Assembly: GCA_964394405.1 (NCBI GenBank)
Contig: CAYMVY010000001.1
Location: 166,546-230,545, forward strand
Source of the DNA: an uncultured Gammaproteobacteria bacterium
Lineage (GTDB): Bacteria > Patescibacteriota > Patescibacteriia > Magasanikbacterales > UBA922
DNA: 64,000 nucleotides
Reading direction: 5' to 3'
Each line of letters opens with the position of its first letter. Position 1 is the stretch's first letter. Shown here in pieces: positions 24,219-47,075 of the stretch. Both the position numbers and the translations under genes were made by a program. The notes under the pieces were generated by a model that ran no database searches, was not told the origin of the DNA, and saw nothing but the letters and a program-made list of their open reading frames with translations.

Positions 24219-27200
24219 TTATGTAAACTTATTCTTCAATATCTCCTTAATTCTTCCCCCATACAATTTAACTCCCAAAATAACCGCAAGTCCTGCAAGC
24301 AAAAGCACGACAGCGCGTATGATTTCAATTCGAGAATAACCTTCCCCTTCTTCTACCATTTCTACCATCGCAACTTTCTCCCCTTTTATCACCCCCTCGA
24401 TCCGCACATCTTTCATATCACGCGGAGAAACCATATACCCACTCTTGGTTTCCTGCACGATTCCAGTTACCGAAACACGTGCCCCTTCAGTAAAAAGTGA
24501 TTTATCAATTCCAGATCCTCCACGAATATAGAGTCGCACTTCATCAGTACCATCATCAAGATATACATATGAACCTTTGATGCCCGTCACCTCCCCTGTG
24601 ATCTCGGTTAGCCAGCCCTCATACGGCTCATCAATATCAGCAATAGCAAGCTCAAGCGGAGTGTAGGTCTCGCTCTTTCCCACAATTGATATATCAGTAG
24701 CCGCATCAATTTTCAATCGCGCTTCCCCAGAAGTTTCAGCTAGTTCGCCCGTGATTTTTACCTTATCTCCACGAGCAAGTGTAGGAAAATCTTTTTTATA
24801 TGAATAAATCTGCAATCCCGGAGATCCTGCAATATAAAAATACTGCGAACTCATGACACCAGGCTCTACAACCACCGTTCCAGTTAAAGATACAACCGTT
24901 CCCACATCAAAATTCCGCACGTCAGTAAGTGTCGTCTCTACTTTTGGTTTTGTAGCAATTGTCTTCACCTTCGACTTTACAACCTCGACTGTTGGAACCA
25001 GTGGATTCTTCTCCCCTGGAGTAAGTTCCGCAGTCCAGAACCACATATCACCTCCATACGTATATGACTTCCCTTCTTTTGAAGAAGCATATTCTATTTC
25101 GTACAAAACCAATCCATCAGAATCGATAATCCATACACTCTCTCCAGAATTAGTAAGCGAAAGTTTTGTGTCTTTTGAATAAAACGCTCGATATTCCCCT
25201 TTTTTCAGAATTGTTTCTTCTGGAAATAGATATGGCTTTGAACCACCCTCACCATCATCCAGTGATAATCCTGCCAAATAAATATCTCGATCATGCGGAT
25301 TAAAAAGTTCAATGTATTCATTCTTCGTATCGCTTCCTAGAGGATTAGGTAATATTTCCACAATTACCGGAATAAACTCCGGAGAATAACTATGTTCAAT
25401 AATCCCAAAACCAACTTCTTCTACTGACGACGAAGAAGTTGAAATCGTAGTGGTAGTAGACACGCGGGAAATTATTTTTTCTGTTTTAAAAAAAATATTT
25501 TCACCACCCTTGGTGATCGTCTCAGTAATGATAAAATCTTCTTCATAATTCCCCGAATCTTTGCCTGATATACGCATGAGAGAAGTTCCCTTCGGAGGAG
25601 CTTTAGCAGCCACATCTTCACCATTCCATTCTCCATATACCACTCGATCAATTTCTGTACCGCTCGGATCAGTAAGGGTAAGCAAATCACCAGAATTATT
25701 CAGACTACCTTTGGGTTTTTCTATGACAAAAAATTGTCTCGAAGCAATCGTGCCAGTTAATGTAGTTTTTGCAAGACTTCCGTCCTGAAAAATCCAACCA
25801 TCAAGAGAAATAGACGAACTTGTTATATTTAACAATTCCACAAACTCAGTCTGGTTATCAGAAGGAATTGAGACAAATTCATTAATCAGAATACTCCCTT
25901 CGGCAAATGCTGGCTTAGGTGTTTCAAGAGTTACCACAGATGAATTATTCCCGCCTGTCTGAATTGGTGAAGAAACTACTACTTTTGGAGTAATATTATT
26001 TGGACTTCCGGGTGTCGGAGTAATTGTATAGGCAAAATCTGTGTGATCAATAGTAGTATCTTCCCCATCACTCACCCGAGCGACCGAATGTCCTTTACTG
26101 GGTATTGGAGCCGCACTATTGTCTTCCCCATAAACTACTGCATCAATAATTTCTTGTCCTGCATTTTTTAGTACAATCGAATCGCCCGACTGATTCAGCT
26201 TACTTGAAGATAAATAAACTAACCGGAATCCTGATGTTTCAATCGTTCCAGTAACTGTGGCAATTTTACCCACACCATCATAGAGTGTACATCCATCAAG
26301 CAACACATCTTCTTCTCCTGCATTATACAATTCAATCCACTCTTTCTCTCCGGAATTCGGATCACTCAAAAATTCATTAATAACAATTTTTAGTGTACTA
26401 CTCGGCGCTTCGTCACCACCCCCCTCCTCTTCATCTTCTGGTTCAGGAATTACAGATGGCAGAATTTCAATGGTATGGAAAACCGTACTCGAAGCCTGCT
26501 CTGTATCATACACAGTGAGTATTACCTGTTTAGTCCCCGTAGTTGCAAATGCATATACGACACTCACACCCTCATACATCTCATTTTCAATTATCCATAC
26601 ATACCGCTCAATACCACTCTCGAGATCAGATGAACCAGAAGCATCAAAAAATATTGATTCATCTACCAGTACACTCTGTGGTCCATCAATACGGGCACTC
26701 GGGGCATGATTTACAATCTCTTCCTCAGAATCAGTCCACCAATAATTTTGCGTGCCTGGAGTCGAGGAGACTGGATGTTCTTTCCATTGGAAAATATCAT
26801 CAGACTCGCCTATGTCACTAATCCGCTCAAGTGAATTATTGTTTACACCAGCGTATACAAATTTTTCTACAAAATCATCACTACCACTTCCCTTCTTAAT
26901 CCCAATTTCTTCTCCAGTTTTAGTAAGCGTAGTCCACACACTATCGAATACAGTTGAAGTAGTGTCTGGATGATCTGCAAAAAATACCCTATCGTTTTGT
27001 GCAATAACTGCATAAGTACCTGGAAGAAGAATGGTCGAAGTAATCGTACTGCTCGGACTTATCGTGAGTCCATGATTCGCCCCTCCCTCCCAAAATTTCC
27101 ATCCAGTTAAATCTACAGCCTCAGCGCTTTTATTATAAATCTCAATCCACTGATGATCACTCGAGGCACATCCGCTCGGACATATTTCAGTGATGATAAT

Positions 27201-27296
27201 ATTCTCCGAAACTGTCTTTACATTTTTTGTGAATAAAAAAATACTTAATGCAATCACAAATACAATAAGTACTATTTCCCTCCATTGTTCTTTCAT
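24219..27296 (-). CDS. large cell-surface protein with multiple lamin-tail-domain (LTD) repeats, N- and C-terminal membrane anchors
   Basis: 1025 aa; N-terminal signal/TM; repeated LTD signatures INEFLSDPNSGEKEWIELYN, EFVELLN, EYIELFN; C-terminal TM IIRAVVLLLAGLAVILGV. Confidence 0.65.
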   Translation of the reverse strand: MKEQWREIVLIVFVIALSIFLFTKNVKTVSENIIITEICPSGCASSDHQWIEIYNKSAEAVDLTGWKFWEGGANHGLTISPSSTITSTILLPGTYAVIAQNDRVFFADHPDTTSTVFDSVWTTLTKTGEEIGIKKGSGSDDFVEKFVYAGVNNNSLERISDIGESDDIFQWKEHPVSSTPGTQNYWWTDSEEEIVNHAPSARIDGPQSVLVDESIFFDASGSSDLESGIERYVWIIENEMYEGVSVVYAFATTGTKQVILTVYDTEQASSTVFHTIEILPSVIPEPEDEEEGGGDEAPSSTLKIVINEFLSDPNSGEKEWIELYNAGEEDVLLDGCTLYDGVGKIATVTGTIETSGFRLVYLSSSKLNQSGDSIVLKNAGQEIIDAVVYGEDNSAAPIPSKGHSVARVSDGEDTTIDHTDFAYTITPTPGSPNNITPKVVVSSPIQTGGNNSSVVTLETPKPAFAEGSILINEFVSIPSDNQTEFVELLNITSSSISLDGWIFQDGSLAKTTLTGTIASRQFFVIEKPKGSLNNSGDLLTLTDPSGTEIDRVVYGEWNGEDVAAKAPPKGTSLMRISGKDSGNYEEDFIITETITKGGENIFFKTEKIISRVSTTTTISTSSSSVEEVGFGIIEHSYSPEFIPVIVEILPNPLGSDTKNEYIELFNPHDRDIYLAGLSLDDGEGGSKPYLFPEETILKKGEYRAFYSKDTKLSLTNSGESVWIIDSDGLVLYEIEYASSKEGKSYTYGGDMWFWTAELTPGEKNPLVPTVEVVKSKVKTIATKPKVETTLTDVRNFDVGTVVSLTGTVVVEPGVMSSQYFYIAGSPGLQIYSYKKDFPTLARGDKVKITGELAETSGEARLKIDAATDISIVGKSETYTPLELAIADIDEPYEGWLTEITGEVTGIKGSYVYLDDGTDEVRLYIRGGSGIDKSLFTEGARVSVTGIVQETKSGYMVSPRDMKDVRIEGVIKGEKVAMVEMVEEGEGYSRIEIIRAVVLLLAGLAVILGVKLYGGRIKEILKNKFT

Positions 27297-27365: not shown

Positions 27366-27420
27366 CCCTCCCCTCTTAGGGGAGGGCCAGAGTGGGGTTA
27401 AACCTATAAAACAAAAAAAC
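27366..27420. repeat. G-rich REP-like hairpin element copy 2 (ccctcccct-ctt-aggggaggg + agtggggtt + aaaacaaaaaaa)
   Basis: Same stem as copy 1 at 647; loop is the reverse complement (ctt vs aag) while flanks keep orientation. Confidence 0.6.
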
Positions 27421-27528
27421 ACCTTTCGGTGATCTATTTTTCAGAATTGAGTCAGACGGGCCACGCGAAATGCGCAGCCCGCCCGTTCATCTACGACCCC
27501 CGAATTAGGGTCGCAGGTTCGACATGGT

Positions 27529-28491
27529 TCATTTATCGGCAGTCGTCGGCAGCTTGATTTTACTAAACCACGGACAACGCACAAGGAAAGATTCCTCATG
27601 CTCAGCCCAGGTACAGTCATCGAACGCCGGGTCCCCTTCGTCAATACGACCATCACAGTCGTTGTCGCCCCCATCCTGGAAGTCGTACCCTTCTCGATGC
27701 GGCCCAACGAGTATGGACTCACCAGTCTGCATGAGAGAGATCCCGTAGGGACAAACAAGGCGGTCCAAGAAGAGAAGCCTCTCCTCATGAAACTCACAGA
27801 GCACAGCCGCGTGCCCCAGCCTAGGGTCATCAGCGCAGTCGCAAGTTGTCTGACCAAGTGCAGGCAGACCATCGCATGCAGGATAGCCATCGCGGTCGCA
27901 GTCGTTGCCAGGCAGAGAATAGCACTCAACAAAGAAGAGGGTAGCCGGGGAATTCAGTGTGGAGTCGTTAGCTTCCTCTTCTTGACCGACGGTACCCAAA
28001 CCGAGAGCTCCATCAACCACCCCATCGCAGTTGTCACCTTTCCAGTCTGTAGCGCCAGGATGGTTGAGATTACTCCCATCCATCTTGAACGCACCGCTAT
28101 CAGACCCAACAGTGGGGCGTTCACCATCGCTCGGATTGTCATCGCAGTCGCCGCCACGAAGTTCGTTGACCTGGAAGACGGGATTCAGTGATCCGACGCA
28201 GGGCGCCGTCTCGCAGAACCCATCTCCATCGTCGTCGTAGTTGTCGGCGGTCATGTCTGCCATGAGCCCGCCGTCAGAGCCAGAAGCGCCGATCGGAACT
28301 CTGCCATGACGATCGACGAAGAGGTGGCACATGCCCGTGCTAGGGATGCAGTAGTGCCCGTTGTCACAGTCCGAGTTCACGGAACAGCTCTTCGCCTCTC
28401 CACCAGACTGACGCTCGATGAGCAGGTAGACGGCGGTCGCGAGGAGGACAGCGGCGAGCGAGAGGAGAGCGATCAGAGAAAACTTCTTCAT
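27529..28491 (-). CDS. secreted Cys/Asp-rich repeat protein (MopE-like putative metal-binding motifs), GC-rich island gene
   Basis: Signal peptide MKKFSLIALLSLAAVLLA; repeated DGDGFCE, DCDRDGYPACDG, DNDCDGRIDEGD motifs; SD aagga 7 nt upstream; local GC about 58%. Confidence 0.55.
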   Translation of the reverse strand: MKKFSLIALLSLAAVLLATAVYLLIERQSGGEAKSCSVNSDCDNGHYCIPSTGMCHLFVDRHGRVPIGASGSDGGLMADMTADNYDDDGDGFCETAPCVGSLNPVFQVNELRGGDCDDNPSDGERPTVGSDSGAFKMDGSNLNHPGATDWKGDNCDGVVDGALGLGTVGQEEEANDSTLNSPATLFFVECYSLPGNDCDRDGYPACDGLPALGQTTCDCADDPRLGHAAVLCEFHEERLLFLDRLVCPYGISLMQTGESILVGPHREGYDFQDGGDNDCDGRIDEGDPAFDDCTWAEHEESFLVRCPWFSKIKLPTTADK

Positions 28492-28734
28492 CTCATTTTC
28501 CTTTTCTGTGTGTGTTTACCCCACTTCAAGCCGGGGTGCATAGCATTTCACATACCAAATTTGATATGCACAATGCTACGCACCCGCATATAAACCATGT
28601 CGAATTGTAATGAACTATTTTATTTTCTTTTTCGGATTTCGTCCTAATTTTCAGGACTCATCAGTGCCGATTTAATCGACAGATCCTTTGGAGCCAGCTC
28701 GACCTAGTGTCGAGTCTGGCTCCGGTTGAGAACG

Positions 28735-29577
28735 TTACTGCTGCGGAGGCAGGGCAAACCACCAGGTGATCTGATAGGTGTTGCCCGACTCAACGTCTGT
28801 CACGTTGATGCTGACGGACATTTGGATCTCGGCAGCCTGAGCTTCAGTAATATCGGGGAGATACACCCCAGCCAAAATTTCCATTTCGGCGCTCGGCGGA
28901 ACGGTATACCCGCCCATCTCGCAGGTTGCGAAGACTGTGTGCTCGAACGTCGTCTCATCGCACGAGCGTGGAAAGAAAGCGGCACGTCCCACATCTCCGA
29001 GATACAGCGAGACCTGATCATCGTCTGCATCACCCTGAGTGGGAATATTGTGACCCTGCACGATGACGTGATTGATCACGACTCCGTATCCGCAATTGTC
29101 TTCGATCGCGACCCTCATCTCAACCCACATATTCGCAATACCCGGAGCGGTGTTGATCATCAGATCACTGGTCCATGTCGTTTCAATGAGCGAGCTGATG
29201 TACGCGCCACGCTGAGGGTAGTCGGTGTACGGCTCGCACAAGTCTTCCTCAGCCTGCCGATCGCCGAGCGGCAAGCTGGTGCCGTCCGGACACACGAGGT
29301 TCGCTGTACCGTCACCATTGTCGACGAGAGTACAACTCTCTCCATCCTCACCATCCTGCCCCGGGATTCCCTGCGGACCCTGGGGCCCCATGGCACCGTC
29401 GGTACCATCTTCCCCATCGATCCCGCTCTTGCCCGGGTCTCCTCGGTCCCCCTTGTCACCCTTCTCACCCGCCGGACCCTGGGGGCCCGGTTCTCCCTCG
29501 ACGACGTACGTATCGCACGCGAAGAGGAAGAGGTTGAAGAACGAGACGAGAACGACGAGAAAACGAATCGTGGCCAT
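28735..29577 (-). CDS. secreted collagen-like (Gly-X-Y) repeat protein, GC-rich island gene
   Basis: Signal peptide then GEPGPQGPAGEKGDKGDRGDPGKSGIDGEDGTDGAMGPQGPQGIPGQDGEDG; SD ggaggtg upstream. Confidence 0.55.
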   Translation of the reverse strand: MATIRFLVVLVSFFNLFLFACDTYVVEGEPGPQGPAGEKGDKGDRGDPGKSGIDGEDGTDGAMGPQGPQGIPGQDGEDGESCTLVDNGDGTANLVCPDGTSLPLGDRQAEEDLCEPYTDYPQRGAYISSLIETTWTSDLMINTAPGIANMWVEMRVAIEDNCGYGVVINHVIVQGHNIPTQGDADDDQVSLYLGDVGRAAFFPRSCDETTFEHTVFATCEMGGYTVPPSAEMEILAGVYLPDITEAQAAEIQMSVSINVTDVESGNTYQITWWFALPPQQ

Positions 29578-29928
29578 GATACACCTCCATAGGCGTAGTT
29601 GATCCCTTCAGCCGGCCAGGCCAAAAGGATAGTTGTGTATGGTACTAGTCAACGTGACTACCCATTGGTGTGCCAAGCATTTAGCAGACCAATATGTAGT
29701 CACGTTAGTAAAAATCAATTGGAAAGGACTATTATTTTAACGAGCTAGTATAACATATATGCGCAAATTTGTCAAGGTAATTGGGTAATATTTTGGCTAA
29801 TTTTAGCAAAATTTGCTTAACTCAGTATACTATTTTTCTTCTGCTCAATGTTATATACCCCAGTCTTCATGTTTTCCCCAACCTATCCCCCACCAAAAGC
29901 CCTAATTTGTATACAATATTCTACACAT

Positions 29929-41310: not shown

Positions 41311-41455
41311 TACATAGAAAACAAGCATACGCGAAAACAAAATAGTTGACAATACATACTTTTTCATGTTTACTATCACCCGTCTCTTGCGAACACTGCA
41401 CGCGCAGTTATGTAGGCGACGCAACCACCGTCAACAGCTTCAGGAGGAATTCCGC

Positions 41456-41746
41456 ATGATGGATCTGAGTATCGCGCTCAAGGGTCGTGCTCACAAGAGC
41501 AAGAAGCCGAAGAAGCAGGTCGTCAAGGGCATGCTCGAGGTCATCGAGACCAATGCCAGGGGGCGTGGCGGTAGGCCGCGCTGCCAGGTGGTCACGGCCC
41601 GGAACACCTCGGCCAACCTCATGGACGTCACCCTCACGGGAGACGGCAGCCTGCTGATGACGGCCGTGCTCAAGCGGGGCGAGCAGCGCTCGTTCAGCGT
41701 GCCCCCGGGCACCGTCGCGAAGAAGATCGACATCATCGCGTTCTAA
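41456..41746 (+). CDS. small basic protein encoded by a GC-rich island in the dnaA-rpmH interval, hypothetical
   Basis: 96 aa from ATGATG with strong SD caggagg 9 nt upstream; about 62% GC; followed by an 11-bp-stem terminator. Confidence 0.45.
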   Translation: MMDLSIALKGRAHKSKKPKKQVVKGMLEVIETNARGRGGRPRCQVVTARNTSANLMDVTLTGDGSLLMTAVLKRGEQRSFSVPPGTVAKKIDIIAF

Positions 41747-41761
41747 CGCGCGTACGCTAGA

Positions 41762-41806
41762 GTACCGTCTCGCACCATCCCACACGGGCTCTGGTGCGAG
41801 ACTTTC
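41762..41806 (+). terminator. terminator hairpin gtctcgcacca…tggtgcgagac + tttcaaatt
   Basis: 11-bp perfect stem. Confidence 0.6.
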
Positions 41807-41833
41807 AAATTCACTAAAATTAGAGATTTTTTC

Positions 41834-41862
41834 TTGACAAAACACAAAAAATAGTGTATAGT
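41834..41862 (+). promoter_or_regulatory. sigma-70 promoter TTGACA-17-TGTATAGT for rpmH
   Basis: Consensus -35, 17-nt spacer, extended -10, 36 nt upstream of rpmH ATG. Confidence 0.5.
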
Positions 41863-44007: not shown

Positions 44008-44148
44008 AGCAACAAGTTAGTTTTGTACTGCGGAGTGTAACAGAAGAATGATAAAAAATCAACCGTTAAAATAAAAAAGAAAGAGGGGTGGTCTTTCAAA
44101 AGTTGACGTGGAAGGGGGTCTCTGCGTGCGCAGGGACCCCCTTCTTCC

Positions 44149-44826
44149 TCATGCAGCCCCATCGTCATTTCCGCCTCGGTAGAGACGAAGATGTGGTGGA
44201 GGGGGCGATCGGGGGTTGTGTCGGGAATGATAACCTGTCCCATATTTGCCGCCATGAATGCAGCGTAGAGGTGCCCTATGTGGAGGTGGAATTTGAGCAG
44301 GTTGTGCTAGCGGCTGAGCAATCGGGGCATCTGCATTCGACACCTCACTCATTACAGACCCGAACAATTCTTCACGCAAGATAGAGAGCACTTCAAGTCT
44401 GAAGAAGAAGTGTCCGTTTTCATGTGAAGTCGATCGGATTGCCCACTCCAGTTCGTTGCGGACTCTCGGTGAAGAGAGGATCGCGTCAACGGGGTATTTT
44501 CCGATAGTTGTTCGGATGGGGGCAATGAGGTCAAGGGTTGATCGGAAGTTTACCCTTTGAAACTCAGTCCAGTCGACCGCGATTCGCACGTGGACACGAG
44601 CACCATCTCGAGACGATACGCAGTAGGTCTGCTTATCCGAGTTGTAGAAGTGGAAGTCGTGCCTCTCGAAGTGCTGCCAGGGCCATCGGAGGTGGATTCC
44701 AGGGGCAAGTCCGCGGAAATGATTGTGAGTCTTTCGGACCGCAATCGTACCTGCAGGAACCATGATGATCAGACGTGCGGCCAGAAAGAGGACGCACAGA
44801 CACAGTACAATGATACCGTACAACAT
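44149..44826 (-). CDS. SPFH/band-7-like domain protein with Pro-rich tail, GC-rich island gene
   Basis: N-terminal TM then VPAGTIAVRKTHNHFRGLAPGIHLRWPW… resembling SPFH; SD aagga upstream of Met at 44826; perfect 11-bp terminator hairpin at 44106-44144. Confidence 0.4.
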   Translation of the reverse strand: MLYGIIVLCLCVLFLAARLIIMVPAGTIAVRKTHNHFRGLAPGIHLRWPWQHFERHDFHFYNSDKQTYCVSSRDGARVHVRIAVDWTEFQRVNFRSTLDLIAPIRTTIGKYPVDAILSSPRVRNELEWAIRSTSHENGHFFFRLEVLSILREELFGSVMSEVSNADAPIAQPLAQPAQIPPPHRAPLRCIHGGKYGTGYHSRHNPRSPPPPHLRLYRGGNDDGAA

Positions 44827-45230
44827 GTGCAATCCTTGGTAAGGGTGGGGAGAATGAACTGTGTACAACATAGCATAAAGAATAAAAAAAATAAAGGCAC
44901 AACATAAAATATTGTACGACGTTAAAAATTATTAATATTAAGCTATTTTATTACTGTTTTATAAAAAATGTTAGAAAATGGGTAAGATCTTCTCTCTATT
45001 ATTTTAATAAATACTATCCCCGCTCATTTGATTCTGATTTCTAATACAGAAAACAAACACGGACTGTAAATCCGTGTTTAGTAAAGAGTCTGTGTTTGTT
45101 TTTCCCGACAGGAACCAATCTACATCCTTCGATGGACAGATAGAACCTTATGTATTGTGCCCCCCCCACCGCGAATCGAACGCGGATCTAGACGTGATTG
45201 AGTGTCTTGTTCCCCGCCTGCCATCGCCTG

Positions 45231-45302
45231 TACCCTCGACAGGAATCGAACCTGTATCTAGACGTTAGGAGTGTCTTGTTCTATCCATTGAACTACGAGA
45301 GC
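45231..45302 (-). tRNA. tRNA-Arg(CCU), argW-like
   Basis: Reverse complement gctctcg-ta-gttcaatggatagaac-a-agaca-cuCCUaa-cgtct-agata-caggttcgattcctg-tcgagggt-a parallels E. coli argW; two G·U pairs in acceptor and A·C at 31-39 lower confidence. Confidence 0.55.
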
Positions 45303-45351
45303 ATAGGCCATGGCGGGCAGGTAACCATTGAACTATGGGAGCTTGTTAATT

Positions 45352-46119
45352 TTAAGTCGTTTCATGTGAAACATCTCTCTCTGTATTAATTAAAGTATAC
45401 ATTAGTGTGTACATTCCGCTCACTGTAGCTTGATGAGTAATGATATCAGCGTATAATTCTCCATATTTATTACTAATAGTGTAGATCGTATCCTCTGTTA
45501 CGATCGTTTCAATATTTTTGTATACATCTGTATGTACTTCTGGAGCCTGTATCCACTGGAACTCAGGAGCTTTAGAAAGTTGTAGCAAAGATTGTCTATT
45601 TGCAGGAGTATCAAATACACAACAAGTACTGCTAGAGGCTGTAGTGATTTTAATGTCACAAAAATCTTTTAAAGTTTCCTGATCAATAGCACTTGGATTA
45701 AAGAGAGATAAAAGAGAAACTTTATTTGTATACAGTGTTCTATACAAATCCAAAATAGCTTCTTTTCCTACTCGATTTGAAAGAAATGGGTGCCCGAGCA
45801 TTGTATATGACGACTCAAGTTTTGGCAAGAGATTTTCCGCGTCATTTATGCGACTATTCCACAAGTTTTTTTGTCGTTCTGCATACTCAATTATTTTTCG
45901 CGGGTGTTTCACGTGGAACTCTGCGGGTTGTGAATTCTTTTTTTGTTCAATCAAATCTAATTCAATTAATCGATCAAGTGAGTGGTAGCCAAGGGTGCGG
46001 GTAATACCAGCTCGGTGGGTGATTGATGTCACAGTTCCTGATCCAAGTTCAAGAAGAGCAAGATAGGTCTTTGCTTCAGTTTCCGCTAATCCAATTTTTA
46101 TAAGCTCCTCAATCTGCAT
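45352..46119 (-). CDS. TrmB-family transcriptional regulator (N-terminal winged HTH)
   Basis: LAETEAKTYLALLELGSGTVTSITHRAGITRTLGYHSLDRLIELDLI matches TrmB HTH. Confidence 0.6.
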   Translation of the reverse strand: MQIEELIKIGLAETEAKTYLALLELGSGTVTSITHRAGITRTLGYHSLDRLIELDLIEQKKNSQPAEFHVKHPRKIIEYAERQKNLWNSRINDAENLLPKLESSYTMLGHPFLSNRVGKEAILDLYRTLYTNKVSLLSLFNPSAIDQETLKDFCDIKITTASSSTCCVFDTPANRQSLLQLSKAPEFQWIQAPEVHTDVYKNIETIVTEDTIYTISNKYGELYADIITHQATVSGMYTLMYTLINTERDVSHETT

Positions 46120-46297
46120 AATTGTAAATATAAATTTACAATAGATAATAATTAAGCATAAATATAGTATATATTAGTAAATATAAATTTACAAGATAGT
46201 TCTAAAACAAAATAAACACACATTATTTAACCTTGACAAAACAGGTGTTTTGTGATACAATTTTTGGTCCTCACAACCAAGGACACTGGAGAGTCTC

Positions 46298-46765
46298 ATG
46301 TTTACGATCATTCTGTCGTTCCTTCTCCTCGTTACTCTCGTGACCGCCATCTTCCTCGCGAAGGAACTCGTGAAGAAGTTCACCTTCCTCAAGGGGTACA
46401 CAGACGGTAACAAAAACTGTATCCGTTGGCACTACCGAGGGAGCGATGTGGAGGGGCATAAACCGGGCATGTACACGATCGTGCTCCACAACACCAGGGG
46501 CGGTGAATTCACGGCCGTGGCCGCGTTTGAACTCCTGCTCCCGTTCGGGATCAAGGGGGTGGACCAGTTCGGACTCATCAAGAGTAGAGGGGCTGGTGTG
46601 GTCGCGTTCTCGACGTATCTGGGCAAGGGGGAGTGTGAATTCATTTTCCTCCTCAACGGGGCAAAGCCCGAACAGGTCGAGCGCTCGATCGACGTGACCG
46701 GCGAGATCACCCCAACCCAGACATATCCGCCGCACTGGTGGCAGCGACTCGGATTCTGGGGCTGA
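46298..46765 (+). CDS. N-terminally anchored hypothetical protein, GC-rich island gene
   Basis: 155 aa; TM helix MFTIILSFLLLVTLVTAIFLA; about 60% GC; followed by 10-bp-stem hairpin at 46811-46838; antisense ORF also open. Confidence 0.35.
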   Translation: MFTIILSFLLLVTLVTAIFLAKELVKKFTFLKGYTDGNKNCIRWHYRGSDVEGHKPGMYTIVLHNTRGGEFTAVAAFELLLPFGIKGVDQFGLIKSRGAGVVAFSTYLGKGECEFIFLLNGAKPEQVERSIDVTGEITPTQTYPPHWWQRLGFWG

Positions 46766-47075
46766 ACGCCTGAGCGCATCGCGCGCTCCTTCCAATGGCA
46801 CGGAAGTAAAGCCTGTACAAACTGCGGAGTTCTGCCAAAGAACTCCGCCCAAACCAAAAGTACATCACACACGTGGTGTCTTTTTGTTTTACCCCCCTCC
46901 TGTCCTCCCCCTTGTGAAGAGGGGGGAACCTACTTACGCAAGGATGACACAAAGTAATGCTTGTGTTACTATGAATAATACTATGGATGGATTTTTATCA
47001 ATTCTTATTCTTATCGTTGGTACAGTAGGAGCTGTGCTTATTGCTTTTTTCTTTGGTAAGATTGGGAAGAAATAA

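Follow-up and report, generated by a model that had tools for sequence, protein, structure and literature searches.

We analyzed a 64,000-nucleotide stretch of bacterial DNA (contig CAYMVY010000001.1 of assembly GCA_964394405.1; this whole 64-kb stretch is called the window), in which a complete gene for tRNA-Arg(CCU) is nested within a second, interrupted tRNA gene. On the minus strand, from position 45342 to 45158, positions 1–21 of the outer tRNA are followed by a left arm, the complete tRNA-Arg(CCU), a right arm, and positions 22–76 of the outer tRNA. The features of the locus are given below, where labels such as L038 denote loci compared with the window.

45342–45322, minus strand: outer tRNA positions 1–21 (GCTCCCATAGTTCAATGGTTA), with the 5' strands of the acceptor stem and D-stem and the D-loop; carries the substitution A20T.
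45321–45303, minus strand: left arm of the insert, 19 nt, GC-rich (CCTGCCCGCCATGGCCTAT); pairs with the right arm and is also found in L038 and L014.
45302–45231, minus strand: inner, intact tRNA-Arg(CCU), called by ARAGORN and Rfam; A20, anticodon CCU, discriminator A73, CCA not encoded.
45230–45213, minus strand: right arm of the insert, 18 nt (CAGGCGATGGCAGGCGGG); identical in L038, identical at 16 of 18 positions in L014.
45212–45158, minus strand: outer tRNA positions 22–76 (GAACAAGACACTCAATCACGTCTAGATCCGCGTTCGATTCGCGGTGGGGGGGGCA), with the 3' strand of the D-stem, anticodon arm, T-arm, and 3' acceptor strand bearing G8 instead of G5.
45080–45054, minus strand: terminator-like hairpin and T-run; homologous hairpins lie 3' of the tRNA in L001, L002, and L008.
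45359–45372, no strand: palindrome GTTTCATGTGAAAC, directly upstream of the tRNA locus.
45352–46119, minus strand: gene for a TrmB-family helix-turn-helix regulator (PF01978, E = 7.5e-12); its stop codon lies 10 nt upstream of the outer tRNA.

The two arms and one tRNA make up the whole 109-nt insert, with nothing else between the outer halves. A repeat finder aligned the upstream piece with the first 21 nt of the inner tRNA at 86% identity and found repeats of 23 nt (87%) and 13 nt (100%) between this tRNA and the downstream piece. In an nhmmer search with a profile built from 76 distinct tRNA-Arg(CCT) sequences, the downstream piece corresponded to model positions 22–70 (E = 8e-8) and the upstream piece to positions 1–21 (E = 2.1, the piece being too short for significance by itself). 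The outer pieces therefore complement each other exactly, without overlap or gap, to give one tRNA with a cut between A21 and G22 (A21/G22). The arms form a 15-bp helix interrupted by two single mismatches (duplex energy −29.3 kcal/mol), and the 201-nt region is predicted to fold into the outer acceptor stem, the arm helix, and the inner cloverleaf (−75.5 kcal/mol, z = −4.8). When the 109-nt insert was removed in silico, ARAGORN recognized a cloverleaf tRNA with the 4-base anticodon CAAT. The transcript probably ends at the hairpin at 45054–45080, the position of which is conserved in relatives. An earlier note on this DNA, made from the sequence alone, had described the full tRNA, a 5' acceptor and D-arm fragment on one side, a fragment with anticodon arm, T-arm, and acceptor and an 8-nt loop on the other, partly complementary connecting sequences, and a TrmB-like regulator, and all of these were borne out. 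It had also proposed covariance scoring of the fragments: Rfam scored the inner tRNA only, and the similarity of the flanks to tRNA became apparent with the repeat finder and the profile.

ARAGORN called the inner tRNA-Arg(CCT) at 45230/45231–45302 on the minus strand, as the only intact tRNA-Arg(CCT) in the window, and Rfam RF00005 scored it at 62.2 bits against a gathering score of 29. A permissive cmscan with Rfam over 44800–45500 (E up to 10) returned nothing except this tRNA. The gene has the features of a canonical bacterial tRNA-Arg(CCU), namely, a cloverleaf above the Rfam threshold, the anticodon CCU, and A20 within the D-loop AATGGATA. Its oddities are a G1-U72 wobble pair and an A31-C39 mismatch, the latter being present also in the intact tRNAs of relatives. 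The inner acceptor stem (GCTCTCG) and T-arm (ACAGG/CCTGT) are unlike those of the outer copy and are those of the single tRNA found in the more distant L004, L006, L017, and L019, and in L225. From these sequence features, the inner tRNA is most likely the working gene. AGG is rare in the core genes of the window (6 of 4026 codons), and tRNA-Arg(CCU) is a dispensable isoacceptor reading a rare codon. The codons of Arg-CCU, Ala-CGC, and Ala-GGC can be read by a U34 tRNA, and loss of these isoacceptors is therefore tolerable.

The outer sequence has a clear counterpart among relatives, which were located through the syntenic TrmB-like gene. An uninterrupted tRNA-Arg(CCT) occupies the syntenic site in seven Magasanikbacteria loci (L001, L002/L003, L008, L013, L015, L018, and L227), where it reads GCTCCCATAGTTCAATGGATAGAACAAGACACTCCTAACGTCTAGATCCGCGTTCGATTCGCGGTGGGGGCA or a near variant; a search for such uninterrupted loci had been suggested in the earlier note. 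The outer pieces in the window share the acceptor stem of the relatives (GCTCCCA/TGGGGGC, with near variants) and their T-arm (CCGCG/CGCGG), and the outer 5' piece differs from the corresponding 21 nt of the intact L001 and L015 tRNAs by A20T alone. The region 3' of the outer copy, including the terminator, resembles L001 and L008 by eye; the computed alignment paired the inner copy instead. Because the outer sequence is intact as one gene in syntenic relatives, sequence comparison identifies it as the resident tRNA-Arg(CCU) of the locus, split at A21/G22, in agreement with the suggestion of a split or disrupted second tRNA.

Compared with its orthologs, the outer copy carries five lesions. 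A20T adjoins the insertion site. The anticodon loop CTCCTAA has become the 8-nt loop CTCAATCA by two substitutions and one inserted base, and the G5 run of the 3' acceptor strand has become G8, the three extra G residues placing a G opposite G1 and displacing C72 and A73. A20 and the anticodon are identity elements of arginyl-tRNA synthetase in Escherichia coli. Because A20, the anticodon, and the acceptor are all damaged, the outer copy is most likely a non-functional pseudogene. A frameshift-suppressor or quadruplet-decoding tRNA was also considered and rejected: the outer copy has the 8-nt loop, but the insert interrupts it and the three G residues disrupt its acceptor stem. Long A9-G11 homopolymer junctions were seen in relatives (3' of the tRNA in L001 and L008), and homopolymer G runs seem, from these sequences, to be common around the locus, which bears on the change from G5 to G8.

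Recurrence of the arm-tRNA-arm unit and related GC-rich hairpins

The unit recurs at two further loci. In a sister Magasanikbacteria genome (L014), the same locus contains the same arms and an inner tRNA identical at 71 of 72 positions. The outer pieces have decayed there: the 3' flank aligns to the 3' part of the resident tRNA (P about 0.005 by shuffling), and the 5' flank no longer does so. L038 is a 78-kb contig from the Joint Genome Institute (JGI), of which a 9.9-kb stretch was examined. This stretch has 50% GC and a different gene neighborhood, including a 689-aa open reading frame (ORF) that resembles 2-oxoacid:ferredoxin oxidoreductase by eye. It reads, in order, GCCCCCGTAGTTCAATGGATA, CCTGCCCGCCCTGGCCTGC, tRNA-Arg(CCT), CAGGCGATGGCAGGCGGG, and GAATAGATCC...CGGGGGCA. 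Its arms are identical to those of the window at 34 of 37 positions, and the junction is again A21/G22; the inner tRNA-Arg(CCT) differs from that of the window, and the outer tRNA-Arg(CCU) is different again. Removal of the insert from L038 leaves an outer copy recognized by ARAGORN as a clean tRNA-Arg(CCT), and the region has a predicted fold with z = −3.4. Since L038 shares the arms and the A21/G22 junction in combination with different inner and outer tRNAs, the sequences indicate that the arm-tRNA-arm unit entered the same position of tRNA-Arg(CCU) at least twice. The occurrence of this junction in unrelated genomes points to an enzyme or a recombination mechanism behind the site specificity. 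Among the three arm sequences (window, L038, and L014), the changes add mismatches and none is compensatory, which is at most mildly negative for a constraint on RNA structure.

Plain hairpins with the core of the arms (CCTGCCCGCC/GGCAGGCGGG) occur in L059 and L072. L059, a Magasanikbacteria-type locus, has CCTGCCCGCCATCGCAAGC-CTAGA-GCTTGCGATGGCG-TTGC-GGGCGGG at AATGGATA/GAAC of a tRNA-Arg remnant with no tRNA inside; here, a short loop joins the same arm bases, at the site that the insert occupies in the window. In L072, the hairpin reads CCTGCCCGCC-GATT-GGCAGGCGGG. Hairpins of the form CCTGCC[CT]GCC...GGC[AG]GGC[AG]GG are found in many other contigs of the Candidate Phyla Radiation (CPR). 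A related class is a double hairpin of about 30 nt, T-SSGCC-NNN-GGCSSA-CCNGCC-NNN-GGCNGG, which folds as two short hairpins or one long hairpin and was found at the following sites.

TAGTT/C in the D-arm: L031, L034, L053, L059, L067, and L087.
GGTTC/GATTC in the T-loop: L009, L011, and L059.
Directly after A21: L081.
Within a copy of tRNA-Ala(GGC): L031.
Intergenic DNA: L042 and L072.

In L087, two GC-rich hairpins cut a copy of tRNA-Ala(CGC) inside its anticodon. An intact tRNA-Arg(CCT) adjoins the disrupted copy or fragment in all eight further loci counted (L009, L011, L031, L034, L053, L059, L067, and L081); L047 and L087 resemble them, were inspected less closely, and stand outside this count. 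The idea of an insertion hotspot in the earlier note thus holds, as many related and unrelated CPR loci have tRNA-Arg(CCU) scars beside an intact copy. Deletion of the hairpins at the other loci restores no foldable tRNA, as the 5' acceptor strands no longer match, and an outer copy detectable by ARAGORN after deletion is confined to the window and L038; hairpin-interrupted tRNAs were therefore rejected as spliced genes in general. The tRNA-Gly matches in L028 and L064 are intact genes, the 5' ends of which overlap a hairpin, and the few remaining matches look spurious.

Several further observations concern this family and its targets. Among L087, L031, and L070, the copies of tRNA-Ala(CGC) and tRNA-Ala(GGC) cut by GC hairpins have an intact copy nearby, and in L070 a 3' tRNA fragment carries the hairpin CCTGCCCGCC...GGGTTGCGG behind the loop TTCGCA. 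Downstream of tRNA-Arg(CCT) in L081, L084, and L065 lie segments of 100–290 nt, delimited by an inverted T-arm copy (..AGGAATCGAA..) together with a directly repeated tRNA 3' end (TGTGACCGATTCCTGGCAAGGGCA in L081, for example); judged from their sequences, they resemble att-type scars of the classical sort or small elements that have integrated. A 40-nt core of tRNA-Arg(CCU) (positions 8–47) is identical among the matches listed, about 80 metagenomic loci, and variants of the acceptor stem and T-arm occur in all combinations among close relatives (L027, L031, L070, L078, and the Magasanikbacteria loci). Such mosaic alleles suggest recombination between alleles or chimeric assembly across the shared core.

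Searches for further copies gave little. Within the window, additional matches to the arms or double hairpins were merely ordinary terminators and chance matches. Among IMG/VR viral contigs, the arm 15-mer retrieved random GC-rich coding matches only, the 5' junction pattern three coding matches, the 3' junction pattern none, and the nested D-arm pattern two phage tRNA arrays with truncated tRNAs and without arms. In a blastn search of GenBank phages, the inner tRNA alone gave matches, to phage tRNA-Arg genes.

Host, neighboring genes, and a palindrome

The window is bacterial, as it encodes DnaA, DnaN, RnpA/YidD, PBP1, YchF, RmuC, S20, and HolA. Homologs of the TrmB-like protein carry the source name Candidatus Magasanikbacteria (CPR/Patescibacteria). 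The gene order RmuC, small ORF, TrmB-like gene, tRNA-Arg(CCU), small ORF, and YchF is kept in all relatives examined. The two flanking ORFs have 53% and 57% GC compared with 41.6% for the window, which agrees with the GC islands of the earlier note as far as composition is concerned. Both small ORFs have orthologs at the same syntenic places (GC 0.47–0.54 against 0.40–0.43 for the locus), and the ORFs and the TrmB-like gene are equally placed, the ORFs being GC-rich there too, in relatives without the insertion. We therefore rejected them as island cargo, since they are syntenic and GC-rich beside an undisturbed tRNA. The SPFH-like label given to the 225-aa GC-rich ORF fared less well, corresponding to a sub-threshold Band_7 match (E = 0.033), and an exact-sequence look-up of this ORF returned no record.

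Three small ORFs, 44149–44826 (minus strand), 46298–46765 (plus strand), and 41366–41845, have 53–61% GC, and AGG accounts for 7 of 509 codons in the small GC-rich ORFs versus 6 of 4026 in core genes. A hairpin of G and C runs (CCCCCCTC...GAGGGGGG) lies at 46893–46925, downstream of the 155-aa ORF. Elsewhere in the window, the region 27400–29600 is GC-rich (0.48–0.55); the ORF at 28735–29577 (minus strand) has a collagen-repeat match and is overlapped by a long antisense ORF, and a 1025-aa ORF at 24219–27296 (minus strand) combines LTD, PKD, and OB-fold domains.

In the window, the TrmB-like ORF includes the palindrome, extends to 10 nt from the tRNA, and encodes the C-terminus ...DVSHETT. In the relatives checked, its stop codon precedes the palindrome, most clearly in L225. 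The palindrome GTTYCAYRTGRAAC has two copies in the window (45359–45372 and 45906–45919; 0.13 expected by chance), both within the TrmB-like gene, at its 3' end and in its interior. It lies directly upstream of tRNA-Arg(CCU) in many CPR loci, some apparently without a TrmB-like neighbor, where it reads TGTTCCACGTGGAACA; the loci bearing it include L027, L031, L070, L078, L020, L059, and L067. Traveling with tRNA-Arg(CCU), the palindrome may be a candidate regulatory site, either an operator or a promoter element.

Origin of the nested locus and comparison with known systems

We consider it likely that a cassette broke the resident gene and that the copy within the cassette took over. The ancestral locus would have had a single tRNA-Arg(CCU), the outer sequence. 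A 109-nt cassette, a complete tRNA-Arg(CCU) flanked by two GC-rich arms of imperfect complementarity, would have inserted precisely at A21/G22 in the D-loop and broken the resident gene, which would since have acquired further lesions as a pseudogene. We infer that the inner tRNA took over as the working gene. Its transcript might start at or upstream of the end of the TrmB-like gene, together with that gene or just after it, and run to the terminator at 45054–45080, with the arms forming the 15-bp helix in the precursor and extending the inner acceptor stem. RNase P and 3'-end processing would then excise the inner tRNA, and CCA would be added afterwards. As the cassette would supply what it destroys, its insertion would cost little. 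It could be mobilized in trans by an enzyme or by recombination; a transposase acting in trans, break-repair homing via the conserved 40-nt tRNA core, and recombination between hairpin copies are candidates.

How far this reading can be extended is more doubtful. The cassette may be a mobile element with site specificity, a possibility that we advance with somewhat less than even confidence. Equally tentative is the broader proposal of a trans-mobilized tRNA replacement cassette that homes to A21/G22 of tRNA-Arg(CCU) in unrelated CPR-type bacteria, is addiction-like, and belongs to a wider, undescribed GC-hairpin family targeting Arg-CCU, Ala-CGC, and Ala-GGC genes and driving repeated tRNA gene death and replacement.

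Several observations weigh against a cassette that displaced the resident gene. We identified no transposase, integrase, or homing endonuclease, and mobility is suggested only by the recurrence of the unit. There is no target-site duplication when the junctions ...AATGGTTA/CCTGCC...GGCGGG/GAACAAG are compared with the empty site AATGGATAGAACAAG of the orthologs, and the arm sequence occurs once in the window. The arms of the window and L038 are more alike than the stems of their inner tRNAs, which is odd for a passively drifting cassette. The outer copy is identical to its orthologs at 68 of 72 positions, next to heavily diverged intergenic flanks, and its lesions are all at functional sites with none in the stems; this combination could reflect a very recent insertion plus complex mutation, or residual constraint. 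L225, the closest locus by its upstream flank, has a single inner-like tRNA without an outer remnant. With a plain inner-like tRNA lacking a scar at this locus, whole-allele replacement by homologous recombination also occurs here, and the history may exceed one insertion.

Among the alternatives, a local rearrangement without any mobile element seems improbable. A tandem tRNA-Arg pair, the inner type followed by the outer type, would have been scrambled by palindrome-mediated template switching or illegitimate recombination, with the arms as a by-product. GC palindromes are prone to such events, an inner-type tRNA is followed by outer-type 3' remnants in L009, L011, and possibly L004, and the combinations of acceptor and T-arm look mosaic among relatives. 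However, L038 has the same arms, order, and A21/G22 junction in another lineage and locus with other inner and outer tRNAs, and arm-only hairpins lie at the same site in L059. Moreover, the conserved upstream flank directly adjoins the outer 5' piece, and to derive this from a tandem ancestor, the piece would have to be moved across the inner gene. We regard as very improbable a design at the RNA level, in which one precursor would release the inner tRNA and the outer halves, paired via the 15-bp helix or ligated, would form a second, split tRNA, the version in the window with its 8-nt loop having altered or quadruplet decoding. The predicted folds of the window and L038 regions would suit such a design, as would insertion at position 20/21 of the D-loop, where tRNAs vary in length, the clean outer tRNA-Arg(CCU) of L038 without its insert, the outer stems of the window free of substitutions, and the strong conservation of the arms. 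It conflicts with the damage to the outer copy, namely, the three extra G residues facing G1 and displacing C72/A73 and the loss of A20 and the anticodon, and with the decay of the outer halves in L014, where the arms and inner tRNA were kept. The junctions form no bulge-helix-bulge, L038 and L014 add arm mismatches without compensation, and in the hairpin-interrupted copies of L031, L034, and L053 the two strands of the acceptor stem are not complementary. A working two-piece tRNA made up of the outer halves is very unlikely.

The decayed boundary of an integrative element envisaged in the earlier note, in its classical sense, finds little room in these data. The pieces would be attL/attR-type remnants of a tyrosine-integrase element (a prophage or island) that was later deleted, and the GC-rich ORFs would be leftover cargo. 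Genes for tRNA are standard integration targets, att-like direct repeats of the tRNA 3' end exist in L081, L084, and L065, and the flanking ORFs are compositionally odd. Nevertheless, this origin is highly unlikely for the window: a duplicated 3' part of the tRNA would be expected, and instead there are non-overlapping halves split in the D-loop with 109 nt between them. A direct repeat of the tRNA 3' end, which the earlier note had proposed to look for, has no second copy in the 64 kb at up to 3 mismatches. No integrase was noticed among the ORFs between 38 and 52 kb, of which only a handful were scanned with Pfam, and the GC-rich ORFs are syntenic and equally GC-rich beside the undisturbed tRNA of relatives. 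An assembly artefact, in which strain variants of a metagenome were joined chimerically at the shared tRNA core, has a very low probability in our view. The 40-nt core is identical in many co-occurring lineages, and contigs of a second assembly (Logan, SRR12404947, which may stem from the same sample as the window genome) break within the inner tRNA with a 30-nt overlap. This assembly nevertheless reproduces the 5' junction in L007 and the 3' junction, the CTCAATCA loop, and the G8 run in L101, so that both junctions are recovered through unique non-tRNA arm sequence; the same architecture is seen in two datasets of other projects (L014 from NCBI and L038 from JGI), and mutually complementary arms are not expected from chimeras. 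The break between L007 and L101 is an assembly-graph branch at a 30-mer shared with another sequence in the sample, which could be a co-occurring relative or an alternative allele.

If the replacement of a resident tRNA gene by a cassette is true, it would represent a minimal route for selfish DNA into an RNA gene, bringing a spare copy of the gene that it breaks. It would account for the strings of tRNA-Arg(CCU) fragments beside an intact copy in streamlined CPR genomes, where tRNAs are normally single-copy, for the mosaic acceptor and T-arm sequences among close relatives, and for tRNA finders reporting one gene with no sign of the interrupted copy. Annotation of nested loci of this kind can go wrong, with pseudogenes overlooked and spurious-looking 4-base anticodons called, and metagenome assemblies can be interrupted at them, as happened to the Logan contigs. 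The nested precursor also lends itself to studying how RNase P and the 3'-end processing machinery handle a tRNA within a long helix.

The arrangement shares features with several known systems. The tRNA-Arg(CCU) gene (argW in E. coli) is a known integration target, and, as with integrative elements, a tRNA gene is the target, the incoming DNA restores the tRNA, and the displaced old piece stays as a scar. Unlike those elements, the crossover here is in the D-loop, not in the anticodon loop, T-loop, or 3' end, and a whole tRNA is supplied instead of a 3' segment. The insert of 109 nt contains no integrase and is not bounded by a direct repeat of the tRNA 3' segment; the TrmB-like gene, the 155-aa and 225-aa ORFs, YchF, and RmuC are syntenic in relatives with an empty site, where genes of an element should be absent (the integrase scan covered part of the ORFs in the window). 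The cassette resembles miniature inverted-repeat transposable elements, repetitive extragenic palindromic sequences and bacterial interspersed mosaic elements, Rickettsia palindromic elements, and mitochondrial GC clusters in being short, GC-rich, hairpin-forming through the 15-bp arm pairing, and non-coding. As in those families, the arm motif and the double hairpins of about 30 nt are present at many sites of CPR contigs, also inside genes for structural RNAs. It differs from them in having a complete tRNA gene as a passenger at the hairpin tip and in the lack of a target-site duplication. The 64-kb window contains one copy.

Archaeal split tRNAs and tRNA introns are among the subjects reviewed in PMC4090602 and PMC3978253. 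The nested locus is similar to archaeal non-canonical tRNA introns and to split and permuted tRNAs in that the interruption is outside the anticodon loop and complementary flanks join the halves. In Nanoarchaeum, the leaders of split tRNAs are complementary sequences that bring the halves together. The differences are that the host is bacterial, that the outer tRNA is damaged in the window and decayed in L014 (an intact outer copy being found in L038), that the insert is a full tRNA of the same isoacceptor, and that no bulge-helix-bulge is present. The predicted structure places the 5' junction within an unpaired D-loop of 8 nt and the 3' junction directly beside the D-stem, with no 3-4-3 motif; an archaeal-type intron was rejected because this motif does not form. 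In Haloferax and other Euryarchaeota, a box C/D small RNA resides in the intron of tRNA-Trp, is released by processing, and modifies the spliced, functional host tRNA. There too, a second functional RNA is nested in the intervening sequence of a tRNA gene, but here the nested RNA is itself a tRNA, in a host gene that seems to be non-functional.

Self-splicing group I introns, of at least about 200 nt, interrupt the anticodon loop in bacterial tRNA genes, including the tRNA-Arg(CCU) of Azoarcus and Agrobacterium. The isoacceptor, the bacterial host, and an intervening sequence in a tRNA gene are common to both, whereas the insert here is 109 nt long and located in the D-loop; with the permissive cmscan showing tRNA only, a group I intron was rejected. 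The processing stems of rRNA operons, which are cut by RNase III, likewise enclose a structural RNA between long complementary flanks in a precursor, the flanks here pairing over 15 bp with internal mismatches, but the RNA enclosed here is a tRNA inside another tRNA gene. In the literature on tRNA introns and insertions in CPR bacteria, palindromic elements in tRNA genes, and nested tRNAs, we found no description of this arrangement, which is thus apparently an unusual, undescribed variant of insertion into a tRNA gene, in which the insert replaces the gene that it breaks.

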